From Candidatus Iainarchaeum sp. (GTDB lineage Archaea > Iainarchaeota > Iainarchaeia > Iainarchaeales > 0-14-0-20-34-12): a stretch of DNA of 32,000 nt. The notes beneath the pieces were generated by a model that worked only from the letters and a program-made list of their open reading frames with translations, made no database searches and was not told the origin of the DNA. Location: the NCBI GenBank assembly GCA_030649345.1, contig JAUSKK010000051.1, positions 1 to 32,000 of the forward strand, given 5' to 3'. Positions 1,682-31,261 of this stretch are shown one piece after another (position 1 is the stretch's first letter; each line of letters begins with the position of its first letter). Position numbers and translations under genes: made by a program.

Positions 1682-2383
1682 ATGCCGTCTAGTTCCACCG
1701 AAGTTTCTCAAATTGACCTGTTGGTTCATATGGCTTTTTTGCATCAAAGTCATACTGCAATTTCTGAAAGAAGTTTTCATACTCCAGAATATTTAGATTT
1801 TTTAGTTCGATTGTATAAGCAAAGAATTGACCAAATTGCGCGTGATCCAAAACGAGTCATGATTTTTATGCCGTCCATTACTGCAGATATAGGATTTTTT
1901 TCACCGCAAAGATGGAATCAACATTTACGAGACATTGCAGGTCAAGAAGAACCTGGCAAAGCAGTTCATGAATTAATGCAGTATGCAAAACAAAAATTAG
2001 GAAAACGTTTGATTGTAATTGTTTCAGGAATTCAGGATGCAGCTGAACGAGGAACCAGTGTTTCCAAATTAATGAAAGCACGAGGCCTTCAAATTGATCC
2101 ATTTAAAATTAAAGTAGAAGCCTACGGAGAGTACGCGCATGGTTGTGTGAAAGGAGAACTGGAAGATTTTTGCAGGGAATTAAAAATTAATTTGCATGAT
2201 CCCAATAAAGCGAATGTGAAACTAGATTTATGCGGAGACAAACCTGAGTTGGTTTTGGCGACACAGGTGCGGAAAAAACTATTGGCACGATTTAAATCAA
2301 AGCCAAGGATTAGACGAAAGCTTAGGAATAAAATTCAAAGAAAAGGAATTCTAAAACGACACAAGCAATCATTACTTCGCTGA
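1682..2383 (+). CDS. hypothetical protein with a poly-basic C-terminal tail (ORFan)
   Basis: Long uninterrupted ORF with no strong competing frame. I recognise no family. The C-terminus is RKKLLARFKSKPRIRRKLRNKIQRKGILKRHKQSLLR. Confidence 0.5.
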   Translation: MPSSSTEVSQIDLLVHMAFLHQSHTAISERSFHTPEYLDFLVRLYKQRIDQIARDPKRVMIFMPSITADIGFFSPQRWNQHLRDIAGQEEPGKAVHELMQYAKQKLGKRLIVIVSGIQDAAERGTSVSKLMKARGLQIDPFKIKVEAYGEYAHGCVKGELEDFCRELKINLHDPNKANVKLDLCGDKPELVLATQVRKKLLARFKSKPRIRRKLRNKIQRKGILKRHKQSLLR

Positions 2384-7933: not shown

Positions 7934-7996
7934 TTTTGAAAATTTGTGAAAATTTAGCGAATTTTCACAATTATAAAATTCAAAAGAATTTTATAT
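7934..7996 (+). promoter_or_regulatory. conserved promoter/operator module, copy A (upstream of the citryl-CoA-synthetase-like operon)
   Basis: TTTTGAAAATTT at 7934-7945. Inverted repeat GTGAAAATT (7946-7954) / AATTTTCAC (7960-7968). Perfect palindrome ATAAAATTC (7973-7981)-AAAA-GAATTTTAT (7986-7994), overlapping the TATA-like TTTTATAT. AGGAG at 8008-8012 and ATG at 8021. Confidence 0.6.
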
Positions 7997-8020
7997 TTTT
8001 AAAATTCAGGAGAATTTTAA

Positions 8021-11238: not shown

Positions 11239-11266
11239 TTGGAAAAAACCGAACCATTACAATAAA

Positions 11267-15567: not shown

Positions 15568-16365
15568 ATGAAGCCCAAATTTAGTGGAAAAGGAATTTTG
15601 TCTAAAAAACATGGGGCTGTTTTAAGCAGATTGTTGAAAGGAAAACAAAAACGAGCCATTGCCCGGGAATTGAATCTCAGTGAAGCTGGTGTGGAAACCC
15701 GATTGAATATTCTTTGGCCGTATCTTGGAGAAAGTACTCAGCAGTTGATTGAATCTAGGCGAAGAAGTTCAAAAACAGAAAAACCTACTTTGGATTCAAA
15801 AAAATTAATTGATTCTTTAGATCGGGAATTAGAAAGTAATCCAAATCTAAGTACTTTGAAAAAATTAGCAGAAGAATTTAAAGTTAAACCAGCAGTTATT
15901 TTGCATGAATTGAAATTGGCTGGAGTTTTTTTTAAACCAGAACTTGCAAGAAAATGGCTGGAATTCTGGAAAGAAGTAGCACGTGTAAGAAAATTACATT
16001 TAGTAGATCAAGCTCAAGTACTCCGAATTAGTCCGGAAAAAGTGCGTAAATTGCAGCGTCGATTTCAGCAAGGATTTCAAATAAAAGAAATGCGAACTTT
16101 TTTAAAAGAATTAACTAGAGCCGGTTGGTGGAAAAGTGATTATAGGTCTAAGCTTGGAGGGCGTGCAATTCAAAAAAGAGATTGGCAAGTCAAAGAAGAT
16201 CTGGCTTTACTGAATAGTTTAGCTGAAGCATCCAGTGAAACATATGCCGCTTTGATGGGTTCACTTTTTAATCAATACGCCATCCAAGAGTATGCATTCA
16301 GGAAAAAAAATAAGCTGCCAATTCCCAAGTTAATTGCAACTATTGTCGAGGTAGATTCTACATGA
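15568..16365 (+). CDS. ORFan with an N-terminal LuxR/GerE-type helix-turn-helix
   Basis: LSKKHGAVLSRLLKGKQKRAIARELNLSEAGVETRLNILWPYLG follows the LuxR-type pattern L-x2-R-E-x2-V-L-x-L-x3-G-x3-K-E-I-A-x2-L-x-I-S-x2-T-V. I do not recognise the remaining ~200 aa. Confidence 0.55.
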   Translation: MKPKFSGKGILSKKHGAVLSRLLKGKQKRAIARELNLSEAGVETRLNILWPYLGESTQQLIESRRRSSKTEKPTLDSKKLIDSLDRELESNPNLSTLKKLAEEFKVKPAVILHELKLAGVFFKPELARKWLEFWKEVARVRKLHLVDQAQVLRISPEKVRKLQRRFQQGFQIKEMRTFLKELTRAGWWKSDYRSKLGGRAIQKRDWQVKEDLALLNSLAEASSETYAALMGSLFNQYAIQEYAFRKKNKLPIPKLIATIVEVDST

Positions 16366-16390: not shown

Positions 16391-16471
16391 TTTTGAAAAT
16401 TTAAGAAATTTCAACACTATTGTTGAAAACTTAATAGATTTTCAAAATCATAAAATTCAAGAGAATTTTAT
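16391..16471 (+). promoter_or_regulatory. conserved promoter/operator module, copy B (upstream of the orphan sdhA/frdA)
   Basis: TTTTGAAAATTT at 16391-16402. TTTCAACA (16409-16416)-CTAT-TGTTGAAA (16421-16428). TTGAAAA (16423-16429)-N9-TTTTCAA (16439-16445). Perfect palindrome ATAAAATTC (16450-16458)-AAGA-GAATTTTAT (16463-16471). AGGAGG lies upstream of the ATG at 16499. Confidence 0.6.
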
Positions 16472-16498
16472 TGCTTTAAAAAACCAGGAGGTTTTTTA

Positions 16499-18609: not shown

Positions 18610-19377
18610 ATGAAACCTAAAAGAATGGTACGTATCCAGCGGCCTAAAAGAAGATTAAAACAAAGACAGCCAAGATCAAGGCCTTTGGCGCGATTTCGGC
18701 ATTTGCAGGAATACAATAAAGTTCATGGAGCTGAAATTTTAAGAAAAGTATTTGAACGATTGTCATTACAGGCAAGAAAAAGAATTGCCGTTAGTCCAGC
18801 AGTGTATGTGAAACCAGTTAAATTTGAAAGTGAATTATGTGCACGCTTGGAGACATTTGCACAAAAATGTCCTCAAGCTGAGCGAATTTTTGTGCGAGGA
18901 AATATTGTTTCTAGTACGCATAAAAATAGACCTGAAAAATGGAATATTGCACCTCGCGGACATTTTGATCCAAAAACAGGAGAACTGCTGTGGGATACAC
19001 CGCCTTACTCCAATCGAGAATCATGGGCGGAAACAGAATGGCTAATTTATCCAACTCGTGGAAAAATGAAAATTAACCAAGATGGTGTGGTTGAAGTAAG
19101 AAAAATGGGTGGAAATACAATTGTAGTAGATATTCACAGTGCTGGATTATTGGACCTTGAATTAAGACGTGAAGGACCTGTATTTTTAGACTTTGCCAAA
19201 AATAAAGTGGATGGAAATGCTCCACAGAATTTTGCAGCAGTGCAAGAATTGATAGTTCGAATTATGCGGCAAAGAGAATTAGCTCGAATGTCGCATGGAA
19301 ATACTTTAAAACTAAGATATGTCACTTGGAGAGATCAACCTGAGAAAATGGAATTTTACGATTGCCTACTAACGTAA
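18610..19377 (+). CDS. ORFan with an arginine-rich N-terminal arm
   Basis: The 255-aa ORF begins MKPKRMVRIQRPKRRLKQRQPRSRPLARFRHL. I recognise no family. The competing in-window ORFs are short shadows. Confidence 0.5.
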   Translation: MKPKRMVRIQRPKRRLKQRQPRSRPLARFRHLQEYNKVHGAEILRKVFERLSLQARKRIAVSPAVYVKPVKFESELCARLETFAQKCPQAERIFVRGNIVSSTHKNRPEKWNIAPRGHFDPKTGELLWDTPPYSNRESWAETEWLIYPTRGKMKINQDGVVEVRKMGGNTIVVDIHSAGLLDLELRREGPVFLDFAKNKVDGNAPQNFAAVQELIVRIMRQRELARMSHGNTLKLRYVTWRDQPEKMEFYDCLLT

Positions 19378-19421
19378 TTTGTTAAAAAATATGTTGGCAA
19401 TGATGAGGTAAAAATCAATTT

Positions 19422-20084
19422 TTACTCCCATTTTTCTTTGATTAAATTTTCTTCTTTAAACCCTTGGGTTTTCATGAATTCAATTACTGAATCAATGGCT
19501 TTCGGCGGACCGCATAAATAAGTTTGAATTTCAGATTTAGGATTCTCAAATTGTGCATGTTCCATTACTATTTGAACATATCCTTGCTTTCCTTGAGACA
19601 AATCATGACTGGCAATAGAATGAACTTTAAAGTTCGAATGTTTTTTCATTAATTCTTTGAGTTCATTTTGATAAACAAAGCAAGTATTGTTTCTAAAACC
19701 ATAAAATAAATGCATGAATCTTTTTTCGTTAGAATGCAGTAAATGCCGAATCATGGAAATCAAGGGAGCAATTCCTGTGCCTAAAGCTACAAAAGCAATT
19801 TCTTTAAAGTCATTACCTAAAACAAATTTACCCCAAGGGCCTTTCATATTCACAGTGTCTCCAATTTGTTTTTTGACTCCAACATGATTGGTTATTCCTG
19901 GAGTTTCATGTACTCGAATGCATAATTCAAGAGTTGATTCATGCGGTGCACTGGATAAAGAAAACGAAGCCCATTTTAATTGTAAATCATTGCCCCATAA
20001 TTTATAATCATCGCAGGAAACCATGACAAACTGCCCAGGCTGATACGTAAATCCTGCGGGTTTTTCAAATCGAATGACTTGCAA
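19422..20084 (-). CDS. ferredoxin-NADP reductase-like FAD/NAD(P)-binding oxidoreductase (PyrK / hydrogenase-gamma-like)
   Basis: YQPGQFVMV beta-barrel, a degenerate R-x-Y-S site (ASFSLSS), GTGIAPLISMIRHLL NAD(P) motif, and YLCGPP C-terminus. The track start at 20084 is a TTG, and the frame is open up to 20150. Confidence 0.75.
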   Translation of the reverse strand: MQVIRFEKPAGFTYQPGQFVMVSCDDYKLWGNDLQLKWASFSLSSAPHESTLELCIRVHETPGITNHVGVKKQIGDTVNMKGPWGKFVLGNDFKEIAFVALGTGIAPLISMIRHLLHSNEKRFMHLFYGFRNNTCFVYQNELKELMKKHSNFKVHSIASHDLSQGKQGYVQIVMEHAQFENPKSEIQTYLCGPPKAIDSVIEFMKTQGFKEENLIKEKWE

Positions 20085-20159
20085 ATGATTTTGTTCATCT
20101 TGGCATTTTTCGACACTTAAAATTTTTGTTTTAAACTCAACTATATTCAGTCACCTTTT

Positions 20160-21809
20160 TTATCGTATTGGACAAACATTTACAGATAATTCTTCTGCTA
20201 AAGTTAAATTTTCAGAATAATCTACTGGCACGTCAATAATATGAATGCCTTCTGAATTTAAAGCTTTTTCAATGGTGGGTTTTAATTCTTCAGTTTTAGT
20301 AATTTTGTAACCATGGCATCCAAAGCTTTCAGCTAATTTTACAAAATCCGGATTGGTAAAAGTAGAACCAAATTGATTGTTCCATTTTTTTTGCTGTCTA
20401 GTTGTAATCGCACCATACATTCCGTCATCAAAAATAATTACTACAAAAGACAAACCTAAACGTTTGGCAGTCTCAAGTTCTTGGACATTCATTAAAAATC
20501 CACCGTCACCGCAGACTACAATTACTTTTTTATCCGGACAAGCTAATTTTGCTGCAATGGCGCCCGGCAAAGCAAAACCCATGCTGGCCAAGCCATTGGA
20601 AATCAAAACAGTATTGGGTTCATTGGTAAAATATTGTCTTGCCACCCATAATTTATGCGAACCCACGTCACTTAACACAATGTCTGAATCACTAGTGCAG
20701 GTACGTAAATCTGAAATAATTCTTTGCGGTTTTATCGGAAAGTTTGGATCTTTGCATTTTTGATGCAGTTTTTCTTTTAAAACTTCTTTCATGGTCTTGG
20801 CATACGTTGTATCATTTTGAGTAATGCGAACAGTACTTAATCTTTCTAAAGTTTCTTTAATGTCTGCAATAATTTCCAATTCAGGCAAATAACAATTATC
20901 TACTTCTGCAGACAAAGTATTCATGTGCAAAATTTTCTTTCCGCAAGTGGCATTAAATTTTTCCGGAGGAGATTCAACTAAATCATAGCCTATGGCAATA
21001 ATTAAATCTGATTCTGCTACAGCACATAAAGCATAATCTTTAGAATGCAGCATTCCAATGGTAAATAAATTTAATTCATAATCATTGGGAACTACTCCTT
21101 TGCTCATATACGTATTGACTACAGGCAATTGATTGATTTCAATAAATTTTCTTAATTGCTGACTGGCTTTGTTTCGAATCACTCCGTTTCCAATTAAAAC
21201 TATGGGAGTTTTTGCTTTAGAAATTAATTCAACTGCAGTACGTAAATCTGTTTCTTGAGGATGCGAATAATACGTTTTTGTTACAGGCAAAGGTTCACTG
21301 AATGCTTCAGCTTCTGATACGTCTTCGGGTAATTCAATATGGGTTGCTCCAGGTCTTTCACTTTGAGCAATTTTGAATGCTTTGCGGACAATTTCTGGAA
21401 TTGAATTTGGAGAAACAATCGAAGTATTCCATTTGGTAATGGGCTCGAACATTTTTACAATGTCAATAAATTGATGGCTTTCTTTATGGCCTCGAGATAA
21501 GCTTCCTTGGCCTGTAATTGCAACTACTGGTGCTGCATCTAATTGTGCATCTGCTATCCCAGTAACTAAATTTGTGGCACCTGGGCCTAAAGTTCCTAAG
21601 CAAACTCCAGCTTTGCCAGTTAATCTGCCATAAACATCTGCCATAAAAGCAGCGCCTTGCTCATGCCGAACTGTAATAAATTTGATTTTTTTACTTTCAC
21701 TTAAAGCCTGCGTAAAATACAATGTTTCTTCTCCAGGCAAACCAAAAATGTATTCCACGCCTTCATTTTCTAAACATTTAACCAATAATTCGGAAGCATT
21801 CATAGACAT
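20160..21809 (-). CDS. thiamine-diphosphate enzyme of the acetolactate synthase / AlsS family
   Basis: GVEYIFGLPGEE, VRHEQGAAFMADVYGRLTGKAGVCLGTLGPGATNL, and the ThDP motif CGDGGFLMNVQELETAKR. I prefer the ATG at 21809 (MSMNASELL) over the track start at 21851. The preferred start has a TATA-like TTTTATGTAT about 30 nt upstream. Confidence 0.85.
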   Translation of the reverse strand: MSMNASELLVKCLENEGVEYIFGLPGEETLYFTQALSESKKIKFITVRHEQGAAFMADVYGRLTGKAGVCLGTLGPGATNLVTGIADAQLDAAPVVAITGQGSLSRGHKESHQFIDIVKMFEPITKWNTSIVSPNSIPEIVRKAFKIAQSERPGATHIELPEDVSEAEAFSEPLPVTKTYYSHPQETDLRTAVELISKAKTPIVLIGNGVIRNKASQQLRKFIEINQLPVVNTYMSKGVVPNDYELNLFTIGMLHSKDYALCAVAESDLIIAIGYDLVESPPEKFNATCGKKILHMNTLSAEVDNCYLPELEIIADIKETLERLSTVRITQNDTTYAKTMKEVLKEKLHQKCKDPNFPIKPQRIISDLRTCTSDSDIVLSDVGSHKLWVARQYFTNEPNTVLISNGLASMGFALPGAIAAKLACPDKKVIVVCGDGGFLMNVQELETAKRLGLSFVVIIFDDGMYGAITTRQQKKWNNQFGSTFTNPDFVKLAESFGCHGYKITKTEELKPTIEKALNSEGIHIIDVPVDYSENLTLAEELSVNVCPIR

Positions 21810-21879
21810 CAAAAAGTATGTATTATTGGCAAAAAATACATAAAAAGGCATTGGTGCAAATTTAGAAAATTGGACTTAT

Positions 21880-22326
21880 TTAGTCAAATGGCACAGCTAC
21901 AATATCTACTTTGAGTTTTGCAATTTTTTCTGAACTTTCTTGTCCTGCAATAGGATAAGGTTCTATTGAAATTAGAGAAATTAAATATTGGTTTCCTATT
22001 TTGTCTTTGCGTGTAAAAGTCTGCGAAGAATTGGTGTCTAAAGTCAAAGTAATATTTTCTACTAAAATAGCATCTTGTTTTATTTCGAGAATTGTTTTTC
22101 CTTCTCCTTGCCAGACGCAGGTAACCTTTGAAGGACATCTAGAATCTTGAATTTCAATTAATTTAATTTCTAAATTATCTGAAAATTTTGCAGTTTGCCC
22201 TTGTGCTAAATTAAATTCTTCTTCGAATTTAGCATTTACAAAATTAGTTGGATTAACTGGTGGTTGAGTTACACAACCTAAAACCAGAACAATGAGTAAA
22301 GCATAAACTGCAATAATTGTTTTCAT
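21880..22326 (-). CDS. lipoprotein, hypothetical
   Basis: Signal peptide MKTIIAVYALLIVLVLGC with a lipobox. The mature part is beta-rich and of unknown family. Confidence 0.6.
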   Translation of the reverse strand: MKTIIAVYALLIVLVLGCVTQPPVNPTNFVNAKFEEEFNLAQGQTAKFSDNLEIKLIEIQDSRCPSKVTCVWQGEGKTILEIKQDAILVENITLTLDTNSSQTFTRKDKIGNQYLISLISIEPYPIAGQESSEKIAKLKVDIVAVPFD

Positions 22327-22385
22327 AAAAGAATATTGGGCAAGGGTTAATTAAAAACTGTTGGAATGGTTCGGTTTCAGCCAAA

Positions 22386-23804
22386 CTATTGTTTTAGTTC
22401 AGTAATCAATACTTTTAATTCAGTAAATTCTTCAATTGCATATTTAGGCCCTTCTCTACCAAAACCAGAATCTTTAATTCCACCGTACGGCTGATTGTCT
22501 GCACGAAAAGTTGGAGTTTCATTAATTAAAACTCCGCCGACATCTAATTCTTCAAAGGCTTGCAAAGCCTTATTGGAGTCTTGAGTAAATATTCCAGCCT
22601 GCAAACCATACTTTGAATCATTTACTAAATTCAATGCTTGCTTAAAAGAATCATAACTAACCAAAACTTTGACTGGGGCAAAAATTTCTTCCGAATAACA
22701 TTTGCTTTTTGGATTTACATTGGCAAGCAAAGTTGGATAAAATAAATTTTTTTCTCTTTTCCCGCCCAGCAAAATTTTTGCACCTTCTTGGACTGCTTCC
22801 TGAAGCCATTGTTCTACACGTTCAGCTGAACTTAAGTCAATCATAGGCCCAACCATTACTTCAGGGTCTGCTGGGTTTCCGATTTTTAATTTTTGAATTT
22901 CTTGAATTAATAATACTTTAAATTTTTCATACACTTTTTTTTGTACAAAAATTCTTTGCGAACTAATACAGGATTGTCCAGCATATGCATACATGGCTGG
23001 CGCTAATTTTTTTGCAGCAAGCTCTAGATTAGCGTCATCGTGAACAATAACTGCCGCATTACCTCCCAATTCCAGCAAGACGCGTTTTTTGCCAGCATTA
23101 TTTTTTAAATTCCAGCCCACACTGGCAGAACCAGTAAAAGATAAAACTTTTATTCGTTCATCTTGAATTAAAAAATCCAAAGATTGTTTATCACTGCGAT
23201 CAATTGGAAGAACTGATATTGCTTGTTTTGGCCAACCGGACTCCAATGCAATTTCAGCTAATTTAAATGAACTTAAAGGAGTACGCTCTGCTGGCTTTAG
23301 AATAATGGGACAACCGGCAGCAATGGCAGGCCCTAGTTTATGACAAACTAAATTTAATGGAAAATTAAATGGCGAAATTCCTATGATTGAACCGATGGGA
23401 AAACGTTTAATTTTTCCTGTTTTACTTGAATCAATTTCAATAATTTGTTCAGTTAGTTTCAAAGATTCTTCTGCAGACAAACGCAAAGTAACTATAGCTC
23501 GGTCTACTTCTTTTAAAGCCAAAGAAATAGGTTTTCCAGCTTCTTCTGAAATTATTTTAGCCAATTCACTTTTTTGTTGTGTAATTAAATCAGCCATTTT
23601 GAGCAAAATTTTATTTCTTTCCAGTAAACTTAAATTTTTAGTAATCTGAAAAGATTCAGTGGTTAATTCCACTGCTTTTTGCACTTGTTCAAAAGAAGGC
23701 ATGCATACTGTTGCAATTTCTGTTTGATTCCATGGATTCACTACAGGATAAGTTTCTTGGGTTTCAGTCCAAGTTCCAGCCAATAAAAATTTCTGAGCTA
23801 ACAT
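22386..23804 (-). CDS. NAD(P)+-dependent aldehyde dehydrogenase
   Basis: FTGSASVGW, general base in LELGGNAAVIV, catalytic Cys in YAGQSCISSQRIFV, and EEIFAPV. Confidence 0.9.
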   Translation of the reverse strand: MLAQKFLLAGTWTETQETYPVVNPWNQTEIATVCMPSFEQVQKAVELTTESFQITKNLSLLERNKILLKMADLITQQKSELAKIISEEAGKPISLALKEVDRAIVTLRLSAEESLKLTEQIIEIDSSKTGKIKRFPIGSIIGISPFNFPLNLVCHKLGPAIAAGCPIILKPAERTPLSSFKLAEIALESGWPKQAISVLPIDRSDKQSLDFLIQDERIKVLSFTGSASVGWNLKNNAGKKRVLLELGGNAAVIVHDDANLELAAKKLAPAMYAYAGQSCISSQRIFVQKKVYEKFKVLLIQEIQKLKIGNPADPEVMVGPMIDLSSAERVEQWLQEAVQEGAKILLGGKREKNLFYPTLLANVNPKSKCYSEEIFAPVKVLVSYDSFKQALNLVNDSKYGLQAGIFTQDSNKALQAFEELDVGGVLINETPTFRADNQPYGGIKDSGFGREGPKYAIEEFTELKVLITELKQ

Positions 23805-23856
23805 TTTAGAATTGGCTTGAAAACAATATATAAATCTAATTCAGCCTAGTTTTTGT

Positions 23857-24405
23857 ATGAGCAATTTTATTTTAGCAATTTCCGGAAGCCCAAAAAAAGG
23901 AAATACAGACACTATGCTAGAGCAAACAGTTAAGGGAGCAGAAAGCACTGGCTTGAAAGTAAAAACTATTTTTTTGCGTGACTTAAACTTTTCAGGCTGC
24001 TGCGGCTGGACAGATTGTTTTTATGAAGGCTATTGTAAAATAGATGATGAAATGCAAAACGTGTATAAAGATTTATTGACTTGTTCTGGCTTGATTTTAG
24101 CCAGCCCAAATTATTTCAACAGCGTTTCTGGTTTAATGAAAAATTTTATTGATCGAACCAATCCCTATGCTTTGAAAAAACAATTGGCTGGAAAAAAAGC
24201 AATTTTGTTGACTTGTGGCGGTTGGTCTTTGGACAGTATTCAAAAAACAGAAGATTATTTAAGAGAAATTTGCAGAATTCATAAAATTGAAGTTTTGGGT
24301 GCACAGAAAATCAAAGCAGATTATCCGAATGAAGCTCAAGAGCAAATTAAAGAATTAGAAAACTGTTTTGAATTAGGAAAACTGTTAGGCAAAAGTTTGA
24401 TTTAA
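23857..24405 (+). CDS. NADPH-dependent FMN reductase / iron-sulfur flavoprotein-like protein
   Basis: Flavodoxin-like start ILAISGSPKKGNTDTML, compact Cys cluster FSGCCGWTDCFYEGYC, and SPNYFNSVSG. ATATATAAAT lies about 25 nt upstream of the ATG with no Shine-Dalgarno. Confidence 0.7.
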   Translation: MSNFILAISGSPKKGNTDTMLEQTVKGAESTGLKVKTIFLRDLNFSGCCGWTDCFYEGYCKIDDEMQNVYKDLLTCSGLILASPNYFNSVSGLMKNFIDRTNPYALKKQLAGKKAILLTCGGWSLDSIQKTEDYLREICRIHKIEVLGAQKIKADYPNEAQEQIKELENCFELGKLLGKSLI

Positions 24406-24809
24406 TTTTTAGGCATTGCTTTCAAGTCCATGTAAAAAAATTCCCATAAATGACCATTCAGATCCTGAAAACCTCGGCCATACATCCAGCCATGATCTTG
24501 GGGTTCGCGATATTCTAAAGCGCCAGCTTGAATGGCTGTGTTAACCAAAGAATCTACTTCTTTTCTACTATCTACAGATATGCCAATAATTGCTTCAGTA
24601 TTTTTGCTTGCATCACAGATTTGTTTTTTAATAAATGTTTGAAAAAAGGGTTCAACCAATAGCATGACATAAATAGTTTCTGAAACAATCATGCAAGTTG
24701 CATGTTTATCAGTAAATTGCGGATTGAATGTGAATCCTAATTTTGTAAAAAATTCAATGGTTTTATTTAAGTCTTTTACAGACAAATTCAAAAACATTTG
24801 TTTAGGCAT
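24402..24809 (-). CDS. VOC (glyoxalase/bleomycin-resistance fold) family protein
   Basis: 135 aa. FLNLSVKDLNKTIEFFTKLGF beta-alpha-beta start and C-terminal GFQDLNGHLWEF are typical of small VOC proteins. Confidence 0.7.
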   Translation of the reverse strand: MPKQMFLNLSVKDLNKTIEFFTKLGFTFNPQFTDKHATCMIVSETIYVMLLVEPFFQTFIKKQICDASKNTEAIIGISVDSRKEVDSLVNTAIQAGALEYREPQDHGWMYGRGFQDLNGHLWEFFYMDLKAMPKN

Positions 24810-24898
24810 GTATTCTATAAGATGTTAAATGGATTTAAATCTTTCCAAAAAACGCAAAAGAATAACTTTTTTAACTCTAAAAACACTCATTCTAATGT

Positions 24899-25603
24899 AT
24901 GGCTTACGAGCTTGCTTTAAGTTTTGGAATTATTTTGGCTTTGGTGCACTTTTTCAGCGATAAAATTGAACAATTATTCGAGCAGAAAAAAATTGATTTT
25001 ATTTCGTTTTCTGCAGGAATTTCTACAGCTTATTTGTTTTTAGTGCTATTACCTGACTTGTATACAGGTTATCAGTTATTGAATTCATTTATTTTTTTGC
25101 TGGTATTGTTGGGATTTACTGTTTTTCACTTAACTGAAAAATGGGTTTATCAAAACACCAGTGCTTTGGGTGATTTACGACATAAATTAAAAGAAGTACA
25201 TGGAGTCACTTGGTTTGTGTATCATGGAGTATTGGGAATTCTTTTGGCTGAATTAACTCAAAGCAATCCAATTATGGGAATGTTATTTTTTGTGCCTATC
25301 TTGTTTCACACCGGAATTAGTACTTTTTCGCTAGAGCAATTGCATGACAAATTAAAATATCATTTACCAGCACGTGCATTATTGTCCGTGTCCACTTTGG
25401 CTGGAATTTTACTGGCATCTCAATTAGCCATTCCTTCTTTGGTTACTTGGATTTTATATGCTTTAATCGGAGGAGCTTTATTCTTTATTGTAATCCGCGA
25501 ATACATTCCGCCGGAAAGACAAGGAAATCCGCGCATGTATTTTATTGCAACCATGGGGTTTGCAATATTAGTATTTGTTTTAAATAACCTGAAACTAATA
25601 TAA
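24899..25603 (+). CDS. polytopic membrane protein, possibly ZIP-like metal transporter
   Basis: About 7-8 hydrophobic segments with His-containing helices (LVHFFSD, VFHLTEKW, ILFHTGIS). C-terminal GGALFFIVIREYIPPE resembles the ZIP G-x-x-L-Y-V-x-x-x-E-L-I-P-E segment. Confidence 0.45.
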   Translation: MAYELALSFGIILALVHFFSDKIEQLFEQKKIDFISFSAGISTAYLFLVLLPDLYTGYQLLNSFIFLLVLLGFTVFHLTEKWVYQNTSALGDLRHKLKEVHGVTWFVYHGVLGILLAELTQSNPIMGMLFFVPILFHTGISTFSLEQLHDKLKYHLPARALLSVSTLAGILLASQLAIPSLVTWILYALIGGALFFIVIREYIPPERQGNPRMYFIATMGFAILVFVLNNLKLI

Positions 25604-25608
25604 TTTAT

Positions 25609-26661
25609 ATGCGAAAACCTGTTTCCAGAAGACCTAGCGCAAAAGTTCATCGAATTGCAAGAATGGTAATTTTAGGTAGTTTAGCTGGAGCTAATTTAGG
25701 ACCACATTCAGCAAAACCTTCAACTCCAGTTGTACAGCGTGCAGGAAGATTAAGACACGATGCATTTTTGCAAGAACAACTGAAAGCCAGGTCGCGTGGA
25801 ATTGAAAAAGTACGAAAAGAAGAAGCACGCAAAAAAGCAGAAGAATTAGAACGACAAAGATTGGAAGAAGTTCGAATAAAAAAAGAAGCAGAAGAAAGAA
25901 TTGCACGAAAAGAAAAATGGCAAAAAAGTTTGGAAACATTAAAACGGGTTACACTGCAAATAAGACGTACGCGAATTTCCAGCAGATTTATGCGACAAAA
26001 TTTGTCTAAATTTAAAAAATATTTAGATGAAAATGCAAGAGCATTGCATAAAAAAATGCGAAAACATGAATGGGAAACTGGCGGGGTAGTTTTAATCGAA
26101 CGTGGAAAAGTAAAAATGATTGATTTACCGGATCCAGAAGATACAAAAATACGCGGATGGTTAGCAGAATTAAAGAAAGGGAATCTAACTAATTTTTCAG
26201 ATATTCGTACAGCGATTCTGGAAAGATTTGAACGAGAAAAAGTAGGGGCTAGACCCAGTATTCAAATTGAAGTAGATGCAGATATTGAGGAAGCCCATCA
26301 GATTCAAAAAGAACTTGCTGAAGAAAGAAATGGGAAACCTGTTTCAAAAAATAGAAGAAAATCTATTTTGGATTTTTTAAAATACCATTTAGATATTGTT
26401 GGCCGGCATAGTTACAGTGGGTTGGCCAATAATTACTTAATTGATGAAGCCTATGCTTCTGCTTTTGATGAACAATCCGACAGTAGATATTTTGGAAGCT
26501 GGCATGTGCATACTCTTGGAAGCCCAGCCAGTAAACAAGATATTCAAGGAAGTACTGCATGGGGCCCTAAAATTGTTTTTTCACCTACTCGAACCGGAAT
26601 GAAAGTGCATATTCTTCAATTAGGTCGAGTAACGAATACCTACACGTATACTTTTAGATAA
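25609..26661 (+). CDS. ORFan: basic N-terminus with a hydrophobic segment, a K/E-rich coiled coil, and a C-terminal domain with a JAB/MPN-like H-x-H...S-x-x-D motif
   Basis: MRKPVSRRPSAKVHRIARMVILGSLAGANLGPHSA, then about 70 aa of K/E/R-rich helix, then EWETGGVVLIERGKV and GSWHVHTLGSPASKQD (nt 26503-26541). Confidence 0.5.
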   Translation: MRKPVSRRPSAKVHRIARMVILGSLAGANLGPHSAKPSTPVVQRAGRLRHDAFLQEQLKARSRGIEKVRKEEARKKAEELERQRLEEVRIKKEAEERIARKEKWQKSLETLKRVTLQIRRTRISSRFMRQNLSKFKKYLDENARALHKKMRKHEWETGGVVLIERGKVKMIDLPDPEDTKIRGWLAELKKGNLTNFSDIRTAILERFEREKVGARPSIQIEVDADIEEAHQIQKELAEERNGKPVSKNRRKSILDFLKYHLDIVGRHSYSGLANNYLIDEAYASAFDEQSDSRYFGSWHVHTLGSPASKQDIQGSTAWGPKIVFSPTRTGMKVHILQLGRVTNTYTYTFR

Positions 26662-26684
26662 CAAAAACACTTTTTGCCGAAATG

Positions 26685-26702
26685 ATTTGAAAAATTTCAA
26701 AT
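26685..26702 (+). promoter_or_regulatory. palindrome upstream of lplB-lplA
   Basis: ATTTGAAA-AA-TTTCAAAT sits 50 nt upstream of the ATG at 26752. Its half-site resembles the TTTGAAAATTT box of the two conserved modules. Confidence 0.35.
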
Positions 26703-26751
26703 AGGTATTTAATGGTTTCAGTCTTTTGAGGATAAGAAACTAAGTGAGATT

Positions 26752-27048
26752 ATGAAAGGTTATGCAATTGAAAAAGTTGAAAATGGAAAGTTAGTCAAAA
26801 TTAAAGTAGATTTTGATGAACGCATTAATTCAATTCAAATCTTGGGAGACTTTTTCTTGCATCCCGAAGAATCCATTTTTGAAATGGAAAAACAACTCAA
26901 AGGAATTCCGTCCAGTCAAAGTCAGGAATCGATTCAGTTGATTTTAGAAAATTATTTGAAAACAAGTCATGCCAAATTAATTGGAATGACTGCAGAAGCA
27001 ATTGCACGCACTGTAAAAAAGGCAATGAATGAAGGTGTTCAAAAATGA
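26752..27048 (+). CDS. lplB: lipoate-protein ligase C-terminal-domain protein (LplB-type)
   Basis: 98 aa. GKLVKIKVDFDERINSIQILGDFFLHPEE matches the LplA C-terminal domain pattern (GDFF). It overlaps the catalytic-domain gene by ATGA. Confidence 0.7.
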   Translation: MKGYAIEKVENGKLVKIKVDFDERINSIQILGDFFLHPEESIFEMEKQLKGIPSSQSQESIQLILENYLKTSHAKLIGMTAEAIARTVKKAMNEGVQK

Positions 27049-27797
27049 CTTGGCGTGTCGTAAAACTAGAAGAACATTCAGCTGAATTAAATATGGCAAT
27101 CGATGAAGCTGTTTGTGAATTTGTTGCAAACGGAAAATCTAAAGCAACTATTCGTTTCTATAAATGGAAACCGAGTGCAGTCAGTATTGGATATTTTCAA
27201 AGCTTAGAAGATGAGGTTGACGTACGATTATGCAAAGATTTAGGATTTGATTTTGTTCGAAGAAGAACTGGCGGCGGAGCAGTCTATCATGACGCTAAAG
27301 GAGAAATAACATACAGTGTAATTGCTCCTGAAAAAATTTTCCCAAAAGGAATTACGGAAAGTTATCATGTAATTTGCGGATGGATTGTGGATTCATTAAA
27401 CGAGCTGGGAATCACTGCAGAGTTTAAGCCTATTAATGACATTATTACACATGGAAAAAAGATTTCTGGAAATGCTCAAACAAGAAGAAACGGAGTACTA
27501 TTACAGCACGGTACTATCTTGTATGATTTAGATGTAGAAACCATGTTTCGCTTGTTAAAAGTTCCTAAAGAAAAAATCTCCGATAAAATGATCTCCGATG
27601 TCAAACAAAGAGTCACTAGTATTCGAGATATTAAAGGAGATTCTGTTTCTGAAATGAATGTTGCAGCTGCATTGGAAAAAGGATTCACAAATGGGAAAGA
27701 ATTTGAGTATGGGAAATGGACCAAAGAAGAACTTGTACGAGCACATGAATTGGTTAAAGAAAGATATTCTAAACAAGAATGGAATTTCATGCGATAA
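27045..27797 (+). CDS. lplA: lipoate-protein ligase A catalytic domain
   Basis: RRRTGGGAVYHD, the GKKISGNAQ lysine motif, and VSIGYFQ. At 250 aa it lacks the C-terminal domain, which is encoded separately upstream. Confidence 0.85.
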   Translation: MTWRVVKLEEHSAELNMAIDEAVCEFVANGKSKATIRFYKWKPSAVSIGYFQSLEDEVDVRLCKDLGFDFVRRRTGGGAVYHDAKGEITYSVIAPEKIFPKGITESYHVICGWIVDSLNELGITAEFKPINDIITHGKKISGNAQTRRNGVLLQHGTILYDLDVETMFRLLKVPKEKISDKMISDVKQRVTSIRDIKGDSVSEMNVAAALEKGFTNGKEFEYGKWTKEELVRAHELVKERYSKQEWNFMR

Positions 27798-27838
27798 ATA
27801 CTGAAAAGCTTTTAAAGAACAAAACAAAGAATACTTGT

Positions 27839-28150
27839 ATGCCTTTACCTATTAAACGAAGACCTAAATTGCGAGTTGTTCAATTTCATGAAATGGATCG
27901 AGAACAAGCTAGAGCTGATTTGCGCAGACGAATTGATTTAATGAATCAAGTAGGCAAACATTTATTGCCGGAAGTTCGGTTAGTGAATGCATTAACTGAA
28001 CTTAGGATAGGCAATTTGGATCCTCAAGTGATTGCTGCTTTACGATCTCTTGCAAAAAATGGAACACGAAATCAGCAAGCAAGAGCACGAAAGGCATTGG
28101 GTAAATTTAAACTAGGCAAAAGACAAGTTTCCAAAGAAGGACATGCTTAA
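27839..28150 (+). CDS. small basic ORFan, possibly HEAT-like helical repeat
   Basis: The internal ATG at 27839 (MPLPIKRRPKLRVVQFH...) is preferred, because the track start at 27779 overlaps lplA. DPQVIAALRSLAKNGTRNQQARARKALGK resembles a HEAT/PBS-lyase-type repeat. Confidence 0.45.
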   Translation: MPLPIKRRPKLRVVQFHEMDREQARADLRRRIDLMNQVGKHLLPEVRLVNALTELRIGNLDPQVIAALRSLAKNGTRNQQARARKALGKFKLGKRQVSKEGHA

Positions 28151-28187
28151 GGAAAATCATTTATTCTTGTTCTAACCTAAACTAGAT

Positions 28188-28946
28188 ATGCCTAAACATG
28201 GAGTCATTTCAAGTTTACGGAGAAAAAAACCAGGTGAACGTGGATATGAGCACACGGTTAAATTAAGAAAACAATTAAAAGAAGATTTACGGTTGGCACG
28301 TAGATTGCATAATCCAAACAATGAGTCATACGGCCAGCTTGGAACAAACTATAGGCGTCTTAGGCTAATGTTCAAAGCACATTTTGAAGAATTTTTAGCA
28401 AGAAAAAAAAGGCAAGTCAGAGAAGAACGAACACATAATTCAAATGCCAAACTCAGATGGCTGGATATTGGCCCAGGTTTACCGGAAAATTTTTTGTCTG
28501 ATTTTGATAAAATAGATCCATCCAGACTATTGGTTGAATTTCATACTTTAGGCCCTCAAGCAGTTAATCCCAAACGAAAACCTGAAATGCGAATGCGGGA
28601 AATTAAATTAAGCGAAGGGAGAACAGAACAAATTCGGAGACACGAATTAAATCCAGACTATAATCCATTGTTTACTCATCACGTAGGCGCTATTGAAACC
28701 TATGATCCCAGAAAACTGGGCGGAAAATTTGATTGTATTGTGTCAACCGGAACTCTTTTTTATGGAAAACAAATTACCGAAGTTCTTCCCAAAATTTGCG
28801 ATTTATTAAATCATCAAGGCCGTGCATTTTTACAAGTTGGATTTGATGTTCCTGCTTTGATTGAATTTTTAAGAACTAACCTTCCAGTAAATTATGAATT
28901 ACGGCAATTTAATAAAACTTTTTTAATGATTGAACGAGTTCACTAA
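28188..28946 (+). CDS. ORFan, class I methyltransferase-fold-like, paralog A
   Basis: Basic N-terminus (SSLRRKKPGERG). Motif I-like RWLDIGPGL, motif II-like KFDCIVSTG, and motif III-like LLNHQGRAFL. It aligns along most of its length with 30440..31261. Confidence 0.55.
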   Translation: MPKHGVISSLRRKKPGERGYEHTVKLRKQLKEDLRLARRLHNPNNESYGQLGTNYRRLRLMFKAHFEEFLARKKRQVREERTHNSNAKLRWLDIGPGLPENFLSDFDKIDPSRLLVEFHTLGPQAVNPKRKPEMRMREIKLSEGRTEQIRRHELNPDYNPLFTHHVGAIETYDPRKLGGKFDCIVSTGTLFYGKQITEVLPKICDLLNHQGRAFLQVGFDVPALIEFLRTNLPVNYELRQFNKTFLMIERVH

Positions 28947-28949
28947 GTA

Positions 28950-30377
28950 TTAGTGTTTCTTTTTGCCTTGGTGTACACATTTGCCTAAAGCATCTTCTGC
29001 TGCTTCCATAATGGCTTCCGGCATGGTTGGATGCGGATGAATTACTGAAGCTAAATCTTCTAATTGGGCAGCCATTTCAATAGCTAAAGCACATTCACTA
29101 ATTAAGTCTGAAGCATGTTCGCCTACAATTTGGATTCCTAAAACAATTTGAGATTCTTGGTCAGCAACAATTTTTACAAAACCTTCTGTTTTATTCATGG
29201 TTAAAGCTCGACCTAAAGCTTTGAATGGAAACTTTCCAATAACTACAGTATATCCTTGCGCTTTGGCTTCATGTTCTTGCAATCCAACATAAGCAATTTC
29301 TGGATCTGTAAATACTACGGCTGGAACCACGTGATTATCAAAAGCAACATTATGGCCGGCAATCACTTCAGCTGCAATCTTTGCTTGCCTGGAAGCTTTA
29401 TGCGCTAACATTGGATTTCCTGTAATGTCTCCAATGGCAAAAATTCGATTATCGGTTGTTCTGCATTGTTCATTAATTATCATAAAACCTTTTTCATCCA
29501 ATTGAACTTTAGTGGTGTCTAATTGAAGTCCTTCCGAGTAAGGTTTTCTTCCAACTGCAACCAAAACTTTTTCAACTTCGATTGAAAATTTTTCTCCTTT
29601 ATTTTTTGGATTCACCGACAAAATAACTGAGTTGTCTTTTTTTTCACATCCTTCAACAGCGGATTGTAGTAAAATTTTAACTCCATATTTTTCGAGTTGC
29701 TTTTGTAATGGCACAATTAATTCAGGGTCTGTACCCGGCAATAACTGGTCTCCTAATTCAATGATTGTAACTTTGCATCCAAGTTTAGCGTATACAATTC
29801 CTAATTCTAATCCAATGTATCCTCCGCCGACTACTGCCAAAGATTCTGGAGCATCGCGTAAAGCCAAAGCGCCTGTTGAACTTAAAATTTGGCGTTCATC
29901 AAATTTCATGAAAGGCAATTCAACTGGTTTAGAACCAGTGGCAATAATACAGTAATCAAATTCTACAGTTGCTACATTTTTGTCATTCGGAATTCCAAGA
30001 GTACGAGAATCTTTAAAGAATGCTTTTCCTTTCAATATTTCCACACCATAATTTTTGCATAAAAAAGCAATTCCTTCAACCAATTTTTTGACTACATCTT
30101 TTTTCCAAGACTGCATTTTTTCAGTATCCAAAGAAACAGCTTGAGCACTAATTCCAAAGAGTTGACTTTCTTCAATATTTCGAAAAAATGAGCTTGCGTG
30201 AATTAATGCTTTGCTGGGAATGCAGCCAACATTCAAACAAACTCCGCCCAATTCTGTGTCTTCAATTAAAATTACCGATTTACCTAATTGTGCTGCGCGT
30301 AAAGCTGCTACATATCCACCTGGGCCGGAGCCAATAATGGCTACATCGTATTTGACTGCAATATCACCCATCACCAT
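28950..30377 (-). CDS. lpdA: dihydrolipoyl dehydrogenase (E3)
   Basis: YDVAIIGSGPGGY, redox disulfide GGVCLNVGCIPSK, a second Rossmann fold LAVVGGGYIGLE, and the C-terminal HPHPTMPE His-Glu dyad. Confidence 0.92.
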   Translation of the reverse strand: MVMGDIAVKYDVAIIGSGPGGYVAALRAAQLGKSVILIEDTELGGVCLNVGCIPSKALIHASSFFRNIEESQLFGISAQAVSLDTEKMQSWKKDVVKKLVEGIAFLCKNYGVEILKGKAFFKDSRTLGIPNDKNVATVEFDYCIIATGSKPVELPFMKFDERQILSSTGALALRDAPESLAVVGGGYIGLELGIVYAKLGCKVTIIELGDQLLPGTDPELIVPLQKQLEKYGVKILLQSAVEGCEKKDNSVILSVNPKNKGEKFSIEVEKVLVAVGRKPYSEGLQLDTTKVQLDEKGFMIINEQCRTTDNRIFAIGDITGNPMLAHKASRQAKIAAEVIAGHNVAFDNHVVPAVVFTDPEIAYVGLQEHEAKAQGYTVVIGKFPFKALGRALTMNKTEGFVKIVADQESQIVLGIQIVGEHASDLISECALAIEMAAQLEDLASVIHPHPTMPEAIMEAAEDALGKCVHQGKKKH

Positions 30378-30439
30378 GTTACATCACAATAAGTAATGTA
30401 TATTATAAAGTTTGAATTTAAAATAGTAATTGATTGATT

Positions 30440-31261
30440 ATGCTCAAAAGACCTAGAATTCGACAGCCTGTGAATAAACGAATTGAAAAACAAAGAAAAC
30501 GCGGAGTAATTCCAAGTTTGTATGGATTTTTTGACCGAAAATATTCACATTTAATTGATTCACCGCGAAAAAGATTGAAGGACAGTATTCGAATGGCCCG
30601 CAAACATCAAATGCCTACAGGCACGTATTACAGCACGGTTGGCGGACATTATGCAAATATGGATCACTATTTTGGAAAACTATTTGAAAGCTTTATTCAA
30701 GGACAAATTAAATTAACTCAAGCACAAGGACTTAAGCCTGTGCGAATTTTAGATATTGGTCCAGGACTAACAGAACGTTTTATGCATGGCTTGCGTAGAT
30801 TGGATCCAACTTTAAAGCATATGCAAATTCACACCATTTCTCCGGAGCAAATTAATCCAAAAACAAGAAGAACGCAAAATGTTCAAAGAGTTTTGACTTT
30901 AAGCAGTGGAGAAAGATTACCTGTCTTTGAACAAGAACCCAATCCAAACTACGAAAAAAGATTAAGACACCATGTTCAAGCGATTGAAACAATTAATCCT
31001 AAAAAATTCAAACGAAAATTTGATGTAATTGTTTCAGTTTGGGGAGGTACACGATATGCTATTGAACCAGTAACTGAAACTATTATTAAAGTCGCACGAT
31101 TATTGAATCCGAAAGGCAAAGCATTTTTGCATACAGCTACATTGCGTCCTGCTGATTTAGAAATATTGGAAAAAGAATTGGGAAAAAATTATGACATAAA
31201 AATAACAGATGGATCGAGAAAAACATTTGCTACGGCAATTATTATTACACGAAAAAGATGA
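30440..31261 (+). CDS. ORFan, class I methyltransferase-fold-like, paralog B
   Basis: ATG at 30440 (MLKRPRIRQPVNKRIEKQRKRG...); the track start at 30434 is a TTG. It carries RILDIGPGL, KFDVIVSVWG and LLNPKGKAFL. HHVQAIETINPKK matches HHVGAIETYDPRK in paralog A. Confidence 0.55.
   Translation: MLKRPRIRQPVNKRIEKQRKRGVIPSLYGFFDRKYSHLIDSPRKRLKDSIRMARKHQMPTGTYYSTVGGHYANMDHYFGKLFESFIQGQIKLTQAQGLKPVRILDIGPGLTERFMHGLRRLDPTLKHMQIHTISPEQINPKTRRTQNVQRVLTLSSGERLPVFEQEPNPNYEKRLRHHVQAIETINPKKFKRKFDVIVSVWGGTRYAIEPVTETIIKVARLLNPKGKAFLHTATLRPADLEILEKELGKNYDIKITDGSRKTFATAIIITRKR

Follow-up and report, generated by a model that had tools for sequence, protein, structure and literature searches.

Seven arginine-rich ORFans on an Iainarchaeal contig probably carry non-homologous cationic tails rather than a common signal

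Seven genes with cationic ends

The window analyzed here—a 32,000-nucleotide stretch that makes up nearly all of a 33-kb contig (JAUSKK010000051.1) from a metagenome-assembled genome (MAG) labeled 'Candidatus Diapherotrites archaeon' (DPANN) at NCBI—contains seven open reading frames (ORFs), hereafter ORFans and named by their start positions, whose products carry cationic ends. An earlier reading of the DNA (the original prediction) held that five of them begin with one very similar Arg/Lys-rich arm. We instead consider it probable that the seven are genuine, native and independently transcribed genes for heterogeneous, lineage-restricted Arg-rich proteins, and that their cationic ends are non-homologous tails, likely polyanion-binding, which do not constitute a common signal. 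The ORFs themselves, all on the plus strand, and the N-termini (in 1682, the C-terminus) that the original prediction quoted were found exactly as described:

1682..2383, + strand: ORFan 1682, 233 aa, isoelectric point (pI) 10.0; acidic to neutral N-terminus and a poly-basic C-terminal tail (...RKKLLARFKSKPRIRRKLRNKIQRKGILKRHKQSLLR)
15568..16365, + strand: ORFan 15568, 265 aa, pI 10.2; borderline GerE/LuxR-type helix-turn-helix (HTH) at residues 10–44
18610..19377, + strand: ORFan 18610, 255 aa, pI 10.3, 11.8% Arg; arm at residues 1 to ~30 (18610–18699), ATP-grasp-like domain at residues ~31–255
25609..26661, + strand: ORFan 25609, 350 aa, pI 10.2, 11.1% Arg; singleton with a basic N-terminus (MRKPVSRRPSAK), then a mildly hydrophobic stretch
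27839..28150, + strand: ORFan 27839, 103 aa, beginning MPLPIKRRPKLR...; the mechanical ORF starts at 27779
28188..28946, + strand: ORFan 28188, 252 aa, pI 10.0, 10.7% Arg; class-I methyltransferase-like
30440..31261, + strand: ORFan 30440, 273 aa, pI 10.6, 10.3% Arg; class-I methyltransferase-like; the mechanical ORF starts at TTG 30434, the NCBI start is ATG 30440

Window ORFan proteins are present in the NCBI annotation of the MAG (locus tags Q7S92_06865, _06905, and _06935), the locus is represented among the reads SRR13727527 of the source sample, and hypothetical proteins predominate in DPANN genomes generally (PMC9258230). A literature search for Arg-rich N-termini in DPANN archaea returned nothing relevant.

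The arms are not a common element

To ask how basic the arms are, we compared the lysine plus arginine (K+R) content of the first 25 residues with shuffles of each protein. An excess over the protein's own composition emerged for just two: 18610, which has the strongest cationic arm of the set (12 K/R, p=0.0004), and 30440 (10 K/R, p~0.01). Each of 15568, 25609, 27839, and 28188 has 7 K/R in this region (p=0.12–0.32, with 0.22 for 25609 and 0.32 for 27839), a count that is usual anywhere in proteins with ~20% K+R. ORFan 1682 lacks an N-terminal arm altogether: its first 25 residues carry a net charge of −2, and its most basic 25-aa window (14 K/R) is C-terminal.

All-against-all BLASTP related only the ORFans 28188 and 30440 (the latter as its mechanical ORF from 30434), which are paralogues (36% identity, E 3e-41); the remaining pairs gave E-values of at least 0.018. 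The direct alignment that had been drawn between the arms of 18610 and 30440 is compositional, the two arms occupying non-equivalent, family-specific positions, and the EW...RGK[MV]K[IM] segment proposed to link 18610 with 25609 falls on positions that are not conserved in the 18610 family (BLASTP E=1). The arms are thus non-homologous, family-specific, and unconserved, and the very similar arm claimed for five ORFs dissolves. Nor do the ORFans form one expanding lineage-specific gene family, since beyond the 28188/30440 pair they are unrelated and differ in fold.

Basic N-termini are not peculiar to these proteins. Our background set comprised the ORFs of 80 other DPANN and Candidate Phyla Radiation (CPR) loci anchored on LplA (1128 ORFs), a collection outside which lie the source genome and its near relatives. 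Within it, a net charge of at least +5 over the first 25 residues is found in 25% of proteins with a pI of at least 10 versus 5% of the others, and a [KR][KR]P tripeptide in the same region in 11% versus 1%; ribosomal L32e-like proteins and LipA are among the carriers. Basic N-termini therefore accompany basic proteins generally. At the nucleotide level, the motif AGACCTA occurred four times versus 1.4 expected, a count reached in 5% of shuffles, and merely encodes R-P; we discarded it.

These numbers raise the possibility that the arms serve no purpose in themselves, being a by-product of high K+R content and of MK or MP starts that was picked by eye among the 36 plausible genes of the window. 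In five of the seven, the basicity of the N-terminus indeed does not exceed what the protein's composition would give, the [KR][KR]P test described below is marginal and post hoc, and the housekeeping genes of the window also often start with MK or MP. The strand argument is similarly modest: the plus-strand placement of all seven ORFans is real, yet with 26 of 36 genes on that strand it reaches only p=0.08 (p=0.02 for the five located in 18–32 kb). That housekeeping N-termini are free of basic runs was mostly borne out, except for CarB (MTLKSKITKPKK; 6 K/R, net +6) and the ORF at 26752, which also has 6 K/R within its first 25 residues and a net charge of merely +1. We nevertheless hold a pure by-product to be unlikely, with the clear enrichment in 18610 and 30440 speaking against it. 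Moreover, 13 of 14 relatives of 18610 keep an N-terminus of net +4 or more despite sequence turnover (P0017, at +1, is the exception), which suggests selection on charge.

ORFan 18610 belongs to a small ATP-grasp-like family

A word-indexed search with 18610 matched only itself, and exhaustive phmmer recovered 14 relatives (180–282 aa), defining a 15-member archaeal family. Its members share the motifs ERIFIRGN, APRGHF, EWLLYxT, and RFVxWK..EFYD, and eight positions are invariant in the family alignment (A1): R92, R96, R116, W128, T149, G159, W240, and E248. None of the 15 members has a Pfam or NCBIfam match, and the profile of the alignment found no match among PDB sequences.

Structure prediction was more informative. 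AlphaFold2 (AF2) run on the family alignment gave a confident model of 18610 (mean predicted local distance difference test [pLDDT] 83.7, predicted template modeling score 0.78), in which residues 1–30 form a low-confidence coil (pLDDT 56–62). With this model, the top 50 Foldseek matches in PDB were all ATP-grasp enzymes (E down to 4e-4, probability ~1.0), among them PurK, pyruvate carboxylase, ITPK1, MdnC, ATP-citrate lyase, TTL, Ddl, and RimK; in the viral models of BFVD, the top matches were TTL-family, TupA-like, and glutathione synthase proteins (E down to 6e-5). The template modeling scores of these matches are modest (0.36–0.47) and the identities low (6–13%). On the strength of the model, we describe 18610 as a putative ATP-grasp-like ligase.

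The likeness to RimK, tubulin-tyrosine ligase, PurK, D-Ala-D-Ala ligase, and ITPK1 lies in the fold of residues ~31–255. When the alignment is read by eye, it would extend to the IFIRGN beta-strand, the hinge-like EWLLY, and the invariant C-terminal Glu of EFYD, which would fall at the phosphate- and Mg-binding sites of ATP-grasp enzymes; the invariant R92, R96, R116, and E248 are suggestive of ATP/Mg-site residues. Unlike typical ATP-grasp enzymes, the domain is very small (~220 aa), and its invariant basic residues are Arg instead of the usual Lys.

As to the arm, most family members start at query residue ~28, with only 5–10 basic residues and with short basic openings such as MRPRRRE, MPRISRRP, MPPRRRY, or MVKRRRH. 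Two members (P0009 and P0011) have long arms, of sequences that differ from the arm of 18610, whose own NCBI start is at M6 (P0007). The genes sit in archaeal housekeeping contexts (thermosome, RIO kinase, Cdc6). For three short-form members (L091:10001-10648, L093:4438-5085, and L094:7508-8203) the gene position is conserved: a HAD hydrolase lies on one side and a convergent DHH/RecJ-like gene on the other, where the prefoldin–Pcc1–L37ae–exosome–SBDS–proteasome superoperon ends. The analysis thereby defines a minimal Arg-rich ATP-grasp-like archaeal family that is often found beside an exosome/RecJ-like superoperon.

One homologue (P0010) stands 46 nt upstream of the E1 gene in a complete eukaryote-type ubiquitin-like cluster of a Micrarchaeota contig (JAZDPR010000031.1; L089:10001-17685), which encodes ThiF/E1, a zinc-finger/RING-like protein, JAB, an 81-aa Ub-like protein ending in GG, UQ_con/E2, a GNAT-like protein, and a Methyltransf_23 protein. 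The association is absent from five other family contexts, and no other ORFan of the window matches proteins of this cluster; we treat it as coincidence.

ORFans 28188 and 30440 are methyltransferase-like paralogues

The two paralogous ORFans belong to a family of about seven members: among 5.8e9 clustered proteins we found one entry identical to 30440 (P0001) and only five other homologues. The glycine-rich, motif-I-like S-adenosylmethionine (SAM)-binding sequence LDIGPG and the motif HHVxAIET are invariant in all seven. Six of the seven show sub-threshold Methyltransf_23 matches, with 28188 at E 2.6e-5 (24.4 bits, cut-off 27) and its window paralogue at 17.5 bits, and the family profile retrieved only weak class-I methyltransferases from PDB (best E 0.0047). 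ORFans 28188 and 30440 resemble class I SAM methyltransferases (Methyltransf_23/11/25) in LDIGPG and in a Methyltransf_23 match over ~140 residues; the family differs in that all its matches score below the Pfam gathering threshold and in having its own HHVxAIET and an N-terminal KQRKRGVI helix.

That helix underlies the arm of 30440, in which the segment NKRIEKQRKRGVI corresponds to the family-conserved helix EEIKAKQRKRGVI. Homologues begin MPTPEVEKRLEEIKAKQRKRGVIEPL, a mixed-charge helix of net +1 to +4, and the 30440 arm is a cationized form of this N-terminal helix. ORFan 28188 lacks it, its start falling at the conserved 'GVI', and the other ORFans have no KQRKRGVI helix either. Together with the 18610 family, this class-I methyltransferase-like family makes two small new families inside known superfamilies, rather than a new kind of system.

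Elsewhere, two family members (P0003 and P0004) are arranged in tandem on a groundwater contig (L086:633-1445 and 1523-2308), in parallel to the pair in the window. The only Iainarchaeal relative sampled, an Iainarchaeum locus (L009), encodes a basic, Pfam-recognizable methyltransferase of 246 aa between LplA and E2 (L009:10759-11499, −), starting MPVFGKGRVRRPKF. We considered this protein as a positional orthologue of the window family and rejected the idea, the hhalign comparison being not significant. The same locus has a basic 247-aa ORFan that starts MPRRPL (L009:18064-18807, +). Its layout recalls that of the window, with no homology detected.

The remaining four ORFans

The label 'unrecognizable' that had been attached to the ORFs fits only in part, given the sub-threshold methyltransferase matches of 28188 and 30440 and the borderline HTH of 15568. 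The Pfam GerE match of 15568 (E 4.5e-5) covers 35 of 57 profile positions and scores 23.4 bits, just under the cut-off of 23.5, and weak HTH_3, HTH_28, and HTH_23 matches follow at residues 89–109 and 147–169. Judged by these motifs, 15568 is a probable DNA-binding regulator. No close relatives of 15568, and no relatives of 1682, were found in metagenome contigs, and 1682 had no match in Pfam, NCBIfam, PHROG, PADLOC, or PDB.

ORFan 25609 was the only match to itself in a word-indexed search of 5.8e9 proteins. Single-sequence AF2 gave a pLDDT of 53 overall, the sole confident part being a long K/R/E-rich helix at residues ~40–120. Its C-terminal region (WHVHTLGSPASKQD / HVHTLGSPASKQD) contains HxHx6Sx2D, which resembles the JAB/MPN (JAMM) metalloprotease motif, E...HxHx7Sx2D, and is one residue short of it. 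PADLOC JAB models matched weakly (E 0.011–0.019) and over the motif only (residues 280–313); there was no Pfam JAB match, and 25609 does not resemble the genuine JAB protein of the Micrarchaeota cluster.

ORFan 27839 is a small and extremely basic protein (pI 11.3 and 12.2% Arg, both computed on the 123-aa ORF from 27779) with no match in Pfam, NCBIfam, or PDB. PDB sequence searches with 1682, 15568, 25609, and 27839 returned nothing, and none of the seven ORFans had homologues in the 80 LplA-anchored DPANN/CPR loci.

Arginine richness is a trait of the whole proteins

A pattern stronger than the arms, and one that the original prediction did not mention, concerns the proteins as wholes. All seven ORFans have a pI of at least 10. 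Together they contain 10.4% Arg, 3.7 times the 2.8% of the 29 remaining genes, and they are also enriched in His and Pro and depleted in Cys. The cores remain Arg-rich after removal of 30 N-terminal and 40 C-terminal residues. Homologues of the 18610 and methyltransferase-like families, on contigs with a GC content of 0.34–0.48, have 7–14% Arg and a pI of 9.9–11, against locus medians of 3.6–5.6% Arg. Arg-richness is a conserved family trait.

The window itself is AT-rich (GC ~33%), and the GC content at third codon positions (GC3) of the ORFans is 0.19–0.26. They match neighboring genes in GC3 and in codon usage, down to the preference among the six Arg codons, as a comparison suggested in the original prediction established. 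Since some 10% Arg has been kept under strong AT pressure while synonymous sites are fully ameliorated, we argue for selection on positive charge.

One might instead see in the Arg-richness, arms included, an unselected leftover in genes recently acquired by horizontal transfer from DPANN donors of higher GC. Homologues do lie on contigs with a GC content of 0.38–0.48, the ORFans are placed singly among housekeeping operons, and gene sharing between DPANN and CPR organisms is evident for LplA. We regard this origin as improbable: besides the native GC3 and Arg-codon choice, the homologues are ~1.4- to 3-fold Arg-richer than their own neighbors at any GC (P0012 has 11.9% Arg on a contig with a GC content of 0.34), and flanking repeats and mobile-element genes were not found.

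We also rejected phage or mobile-element cargo, or a defense system. No repeats flank the ORFans, and there are no mobile-element genes; neither the methyltransferase-like family nor 25609 has relatives on viral contigs; PHROGs and PADLOC gave weak matches only, nothing convincing; and ORFan homologues sit among archaeal housekeeping genes.

Signal or polyanion-binding tail

The original prediction had offered a common targeting, export, or packaging signal as one meaning of the arms. Sec and Tat signals need a basic n-region, a hydrophobic h-region, and a cleavage site, and the Tat motif is S/T-R-R-x-F-L-K. The arms resemble such peptides in being positively charged at the N-terminus, and differ from them in that six of the seven ORFans lack a hydrophobic core: in the sequences of 18610, 27839, 28188, 30440, and 15568, no hydrophobic stretch follows the basic run, and 1682 has no N-terminal run. 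ORFan 25609 comes closest. In its N-terminus (25609–25720), SRRPSAK in the basic region is followed by the weakly hydrophobic stretch MVILGSLAGANLG and then by HSA; S-R-R and a G/A/S/L-rich stretch ending in HSA are signal-like, whereas SRRPSAK deviates from the Tat motif and further charges precede the hydrophobic stretch. We consider an atypical Sec/Tat-like signal possible for this one protein.

Several observations weigh against our preferred reading, and most of them bear on the alternative that a cationic, Pro-containing (often RRP) arm serves as a lineage-specific signal for the targeting, export, or transfer of accessory proteins of a DPANN symbiont. The basic-basic-Pro signature that had been noted retains a nominal excess: [KR][KR]P occurs five times in four arms versus 2.0 expected by within-arm shuffling (p~0.03, uncorrected for its post-hoc choice). 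ORFans 25609 and 27839 both carry P-[VI]-x-R-R-P at residues 4–9. In both families that allow a comparison, the window protein has the more cationic N-terminus (net +12 versus +1 to +9 in relatives, and +9 versus +1 to +4), and basic ORFs of the Iainarchaeum locus begin MPRRP... and ...RVRRPK, which is a hint, from n=2 families and one relative, of lineage-specific pressure on N-termini. Proteins with a pI of at least 10 are, in addition, over-represented in the window (6 of 29) relative to loci below 38% GC (3 of 75; p=0.013), less so relative to the background ORFs overall (105 of 1128; p=0.05). Finally, 1682, 25609, and 27839 have no fold assignment.

Even so, a signal of this kind appears to us very doubtful. 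A set-wide motif is absent, with no [KR][KR]P in the 18610 arm and no N-terminal run in 1682, whose basic run is C-terminal; the arms are missing or different in homologues; RRP at residues 1–15 shows no enrichment relative to 1157 ORFs (4 versus 1.7 expected); the shuffling tests of arm charge and of [KR][KR]P are weak; and the proteins are basic throughout, not at one end alone. Least credible of all is the more specific idea that an RRP-type arm evolved in this Iainarchaeal lineage as a common localization or transfer tag (to the cell surface, vesicles, or the host), the carriers of which may be an ATP-grasp-like ligase, a JAB-like protein, methyltransferases, an HTH protein, and small helical proteins. 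A new common signal would, if true, bear on protein delivery by DPANN symbionts; the evidence does not support one.

Our preference remains with heterogeneous Arg-rich proteins ending in non-homologous tails. Each tail would be the local extreme of a positive charge that extends over the whole protein, N-terminal in most cases and C-terminal in 1682. The tails are probably disordered and variable in length; for arms other than that of 18610, disorder is what we infer. Their charge most likely serves to hold polyanions electrostatically, be they RNA, DNA, ribosomes, or acidic proteins, and the tails might act as non-specific tethers for enzymes or regulators that work on polyanionic substrates. 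Among the meanings proposed originally, a nucleic-acid-binding arm is hence the most compatible, given the Arg-rich basic proteins, the low-confidence coil of the 18610 arm, and the HTH motifs of 15568, with binding itself remaining presumptive.

The tails share several features with the basic tails of nucleic-acid-binding proteins (ribosomal-protein extensions, arginine-rich motifs, and capsid N-terminal arms): they are short, terminal, K/R-rich segments punctuated by Pro, with few acidic or hydrophobic residues, on carriers that are otherwise basic, and charge is kept in them, not sequence. The carriers differ, in that here the putative nucleic-acid-binding tails sit on enzyme-like folds and orphans in place of ribosomal or capsid proteins. 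For four of the seven ORFans the mature domain falls into an unrelated family, an outcome that the original prediction had itself named as counting against a shared arm. Arg-rich lineage-specific proteins of this sort are candidates for RNA-, DNA-, or ribosome-associated roles among the hypothetical proteins of DPANN archaea.

Transcription signals and other features of the window

Six of the seven ORFans have TATA-like boxes ~22–33 nt upstream of the ATG, which suggests short or no leaders, albeit such boxes occur commonly by chance in AT-rich DNA. For 27839, the TATA-like sequence TTTAAAGA is at −28..−21. ORFan 28188 begins 38 nt downstream of 27839 and lacks a TATA-like box; judging from this arrangement, the two may be co-transcribed as one transcription unit.

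The housekeeping surroundings of the ORFans (tricarboxylic acid [TCA] cycle, lipoylation, and oxo-acid dehydrogenase) were correctly described and are supported by Pfam, which recognized a citrate-synthase-like protein, fumarase, an SdhA-like flavoprotein, ferredoxin, LplA, and the E3 and E2 components of an oxo-acid dehydrogenase. The LplA of the window (27045–27797) shares 57–71% identity with its counterparts in Woesearchaeota, Aenigmatarchaeota, and Micrarchaeota and likewise in CPR bacteria (Peregrinibacteria and Gracilibacteria), a similarity that suggests gene sharing between DPANN and CPR organisms.

Two repeated elements were observed besides. The copies of a 63-nt direct repeat (79% identity; 7942–8004 and 16419–16481) directly precede sucC (8021) and the SdhA-like gene (16499), respectively; the repeat looks like a common promoter or regulatory element of two TCA-cycle transcription units. 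A 24-nt element, AAACCGAACCATT[AC]CAA, is found at 11239–11262 and 22361–22384 as an inverted repeat (83% match) with the same orientation relative to each gene, ~35–55 nt upstream of a serpin gene (11297, +) and of a lipoprotein-like ORF (21880–22326, −), the products of which both have lipobox-like signal peptides.

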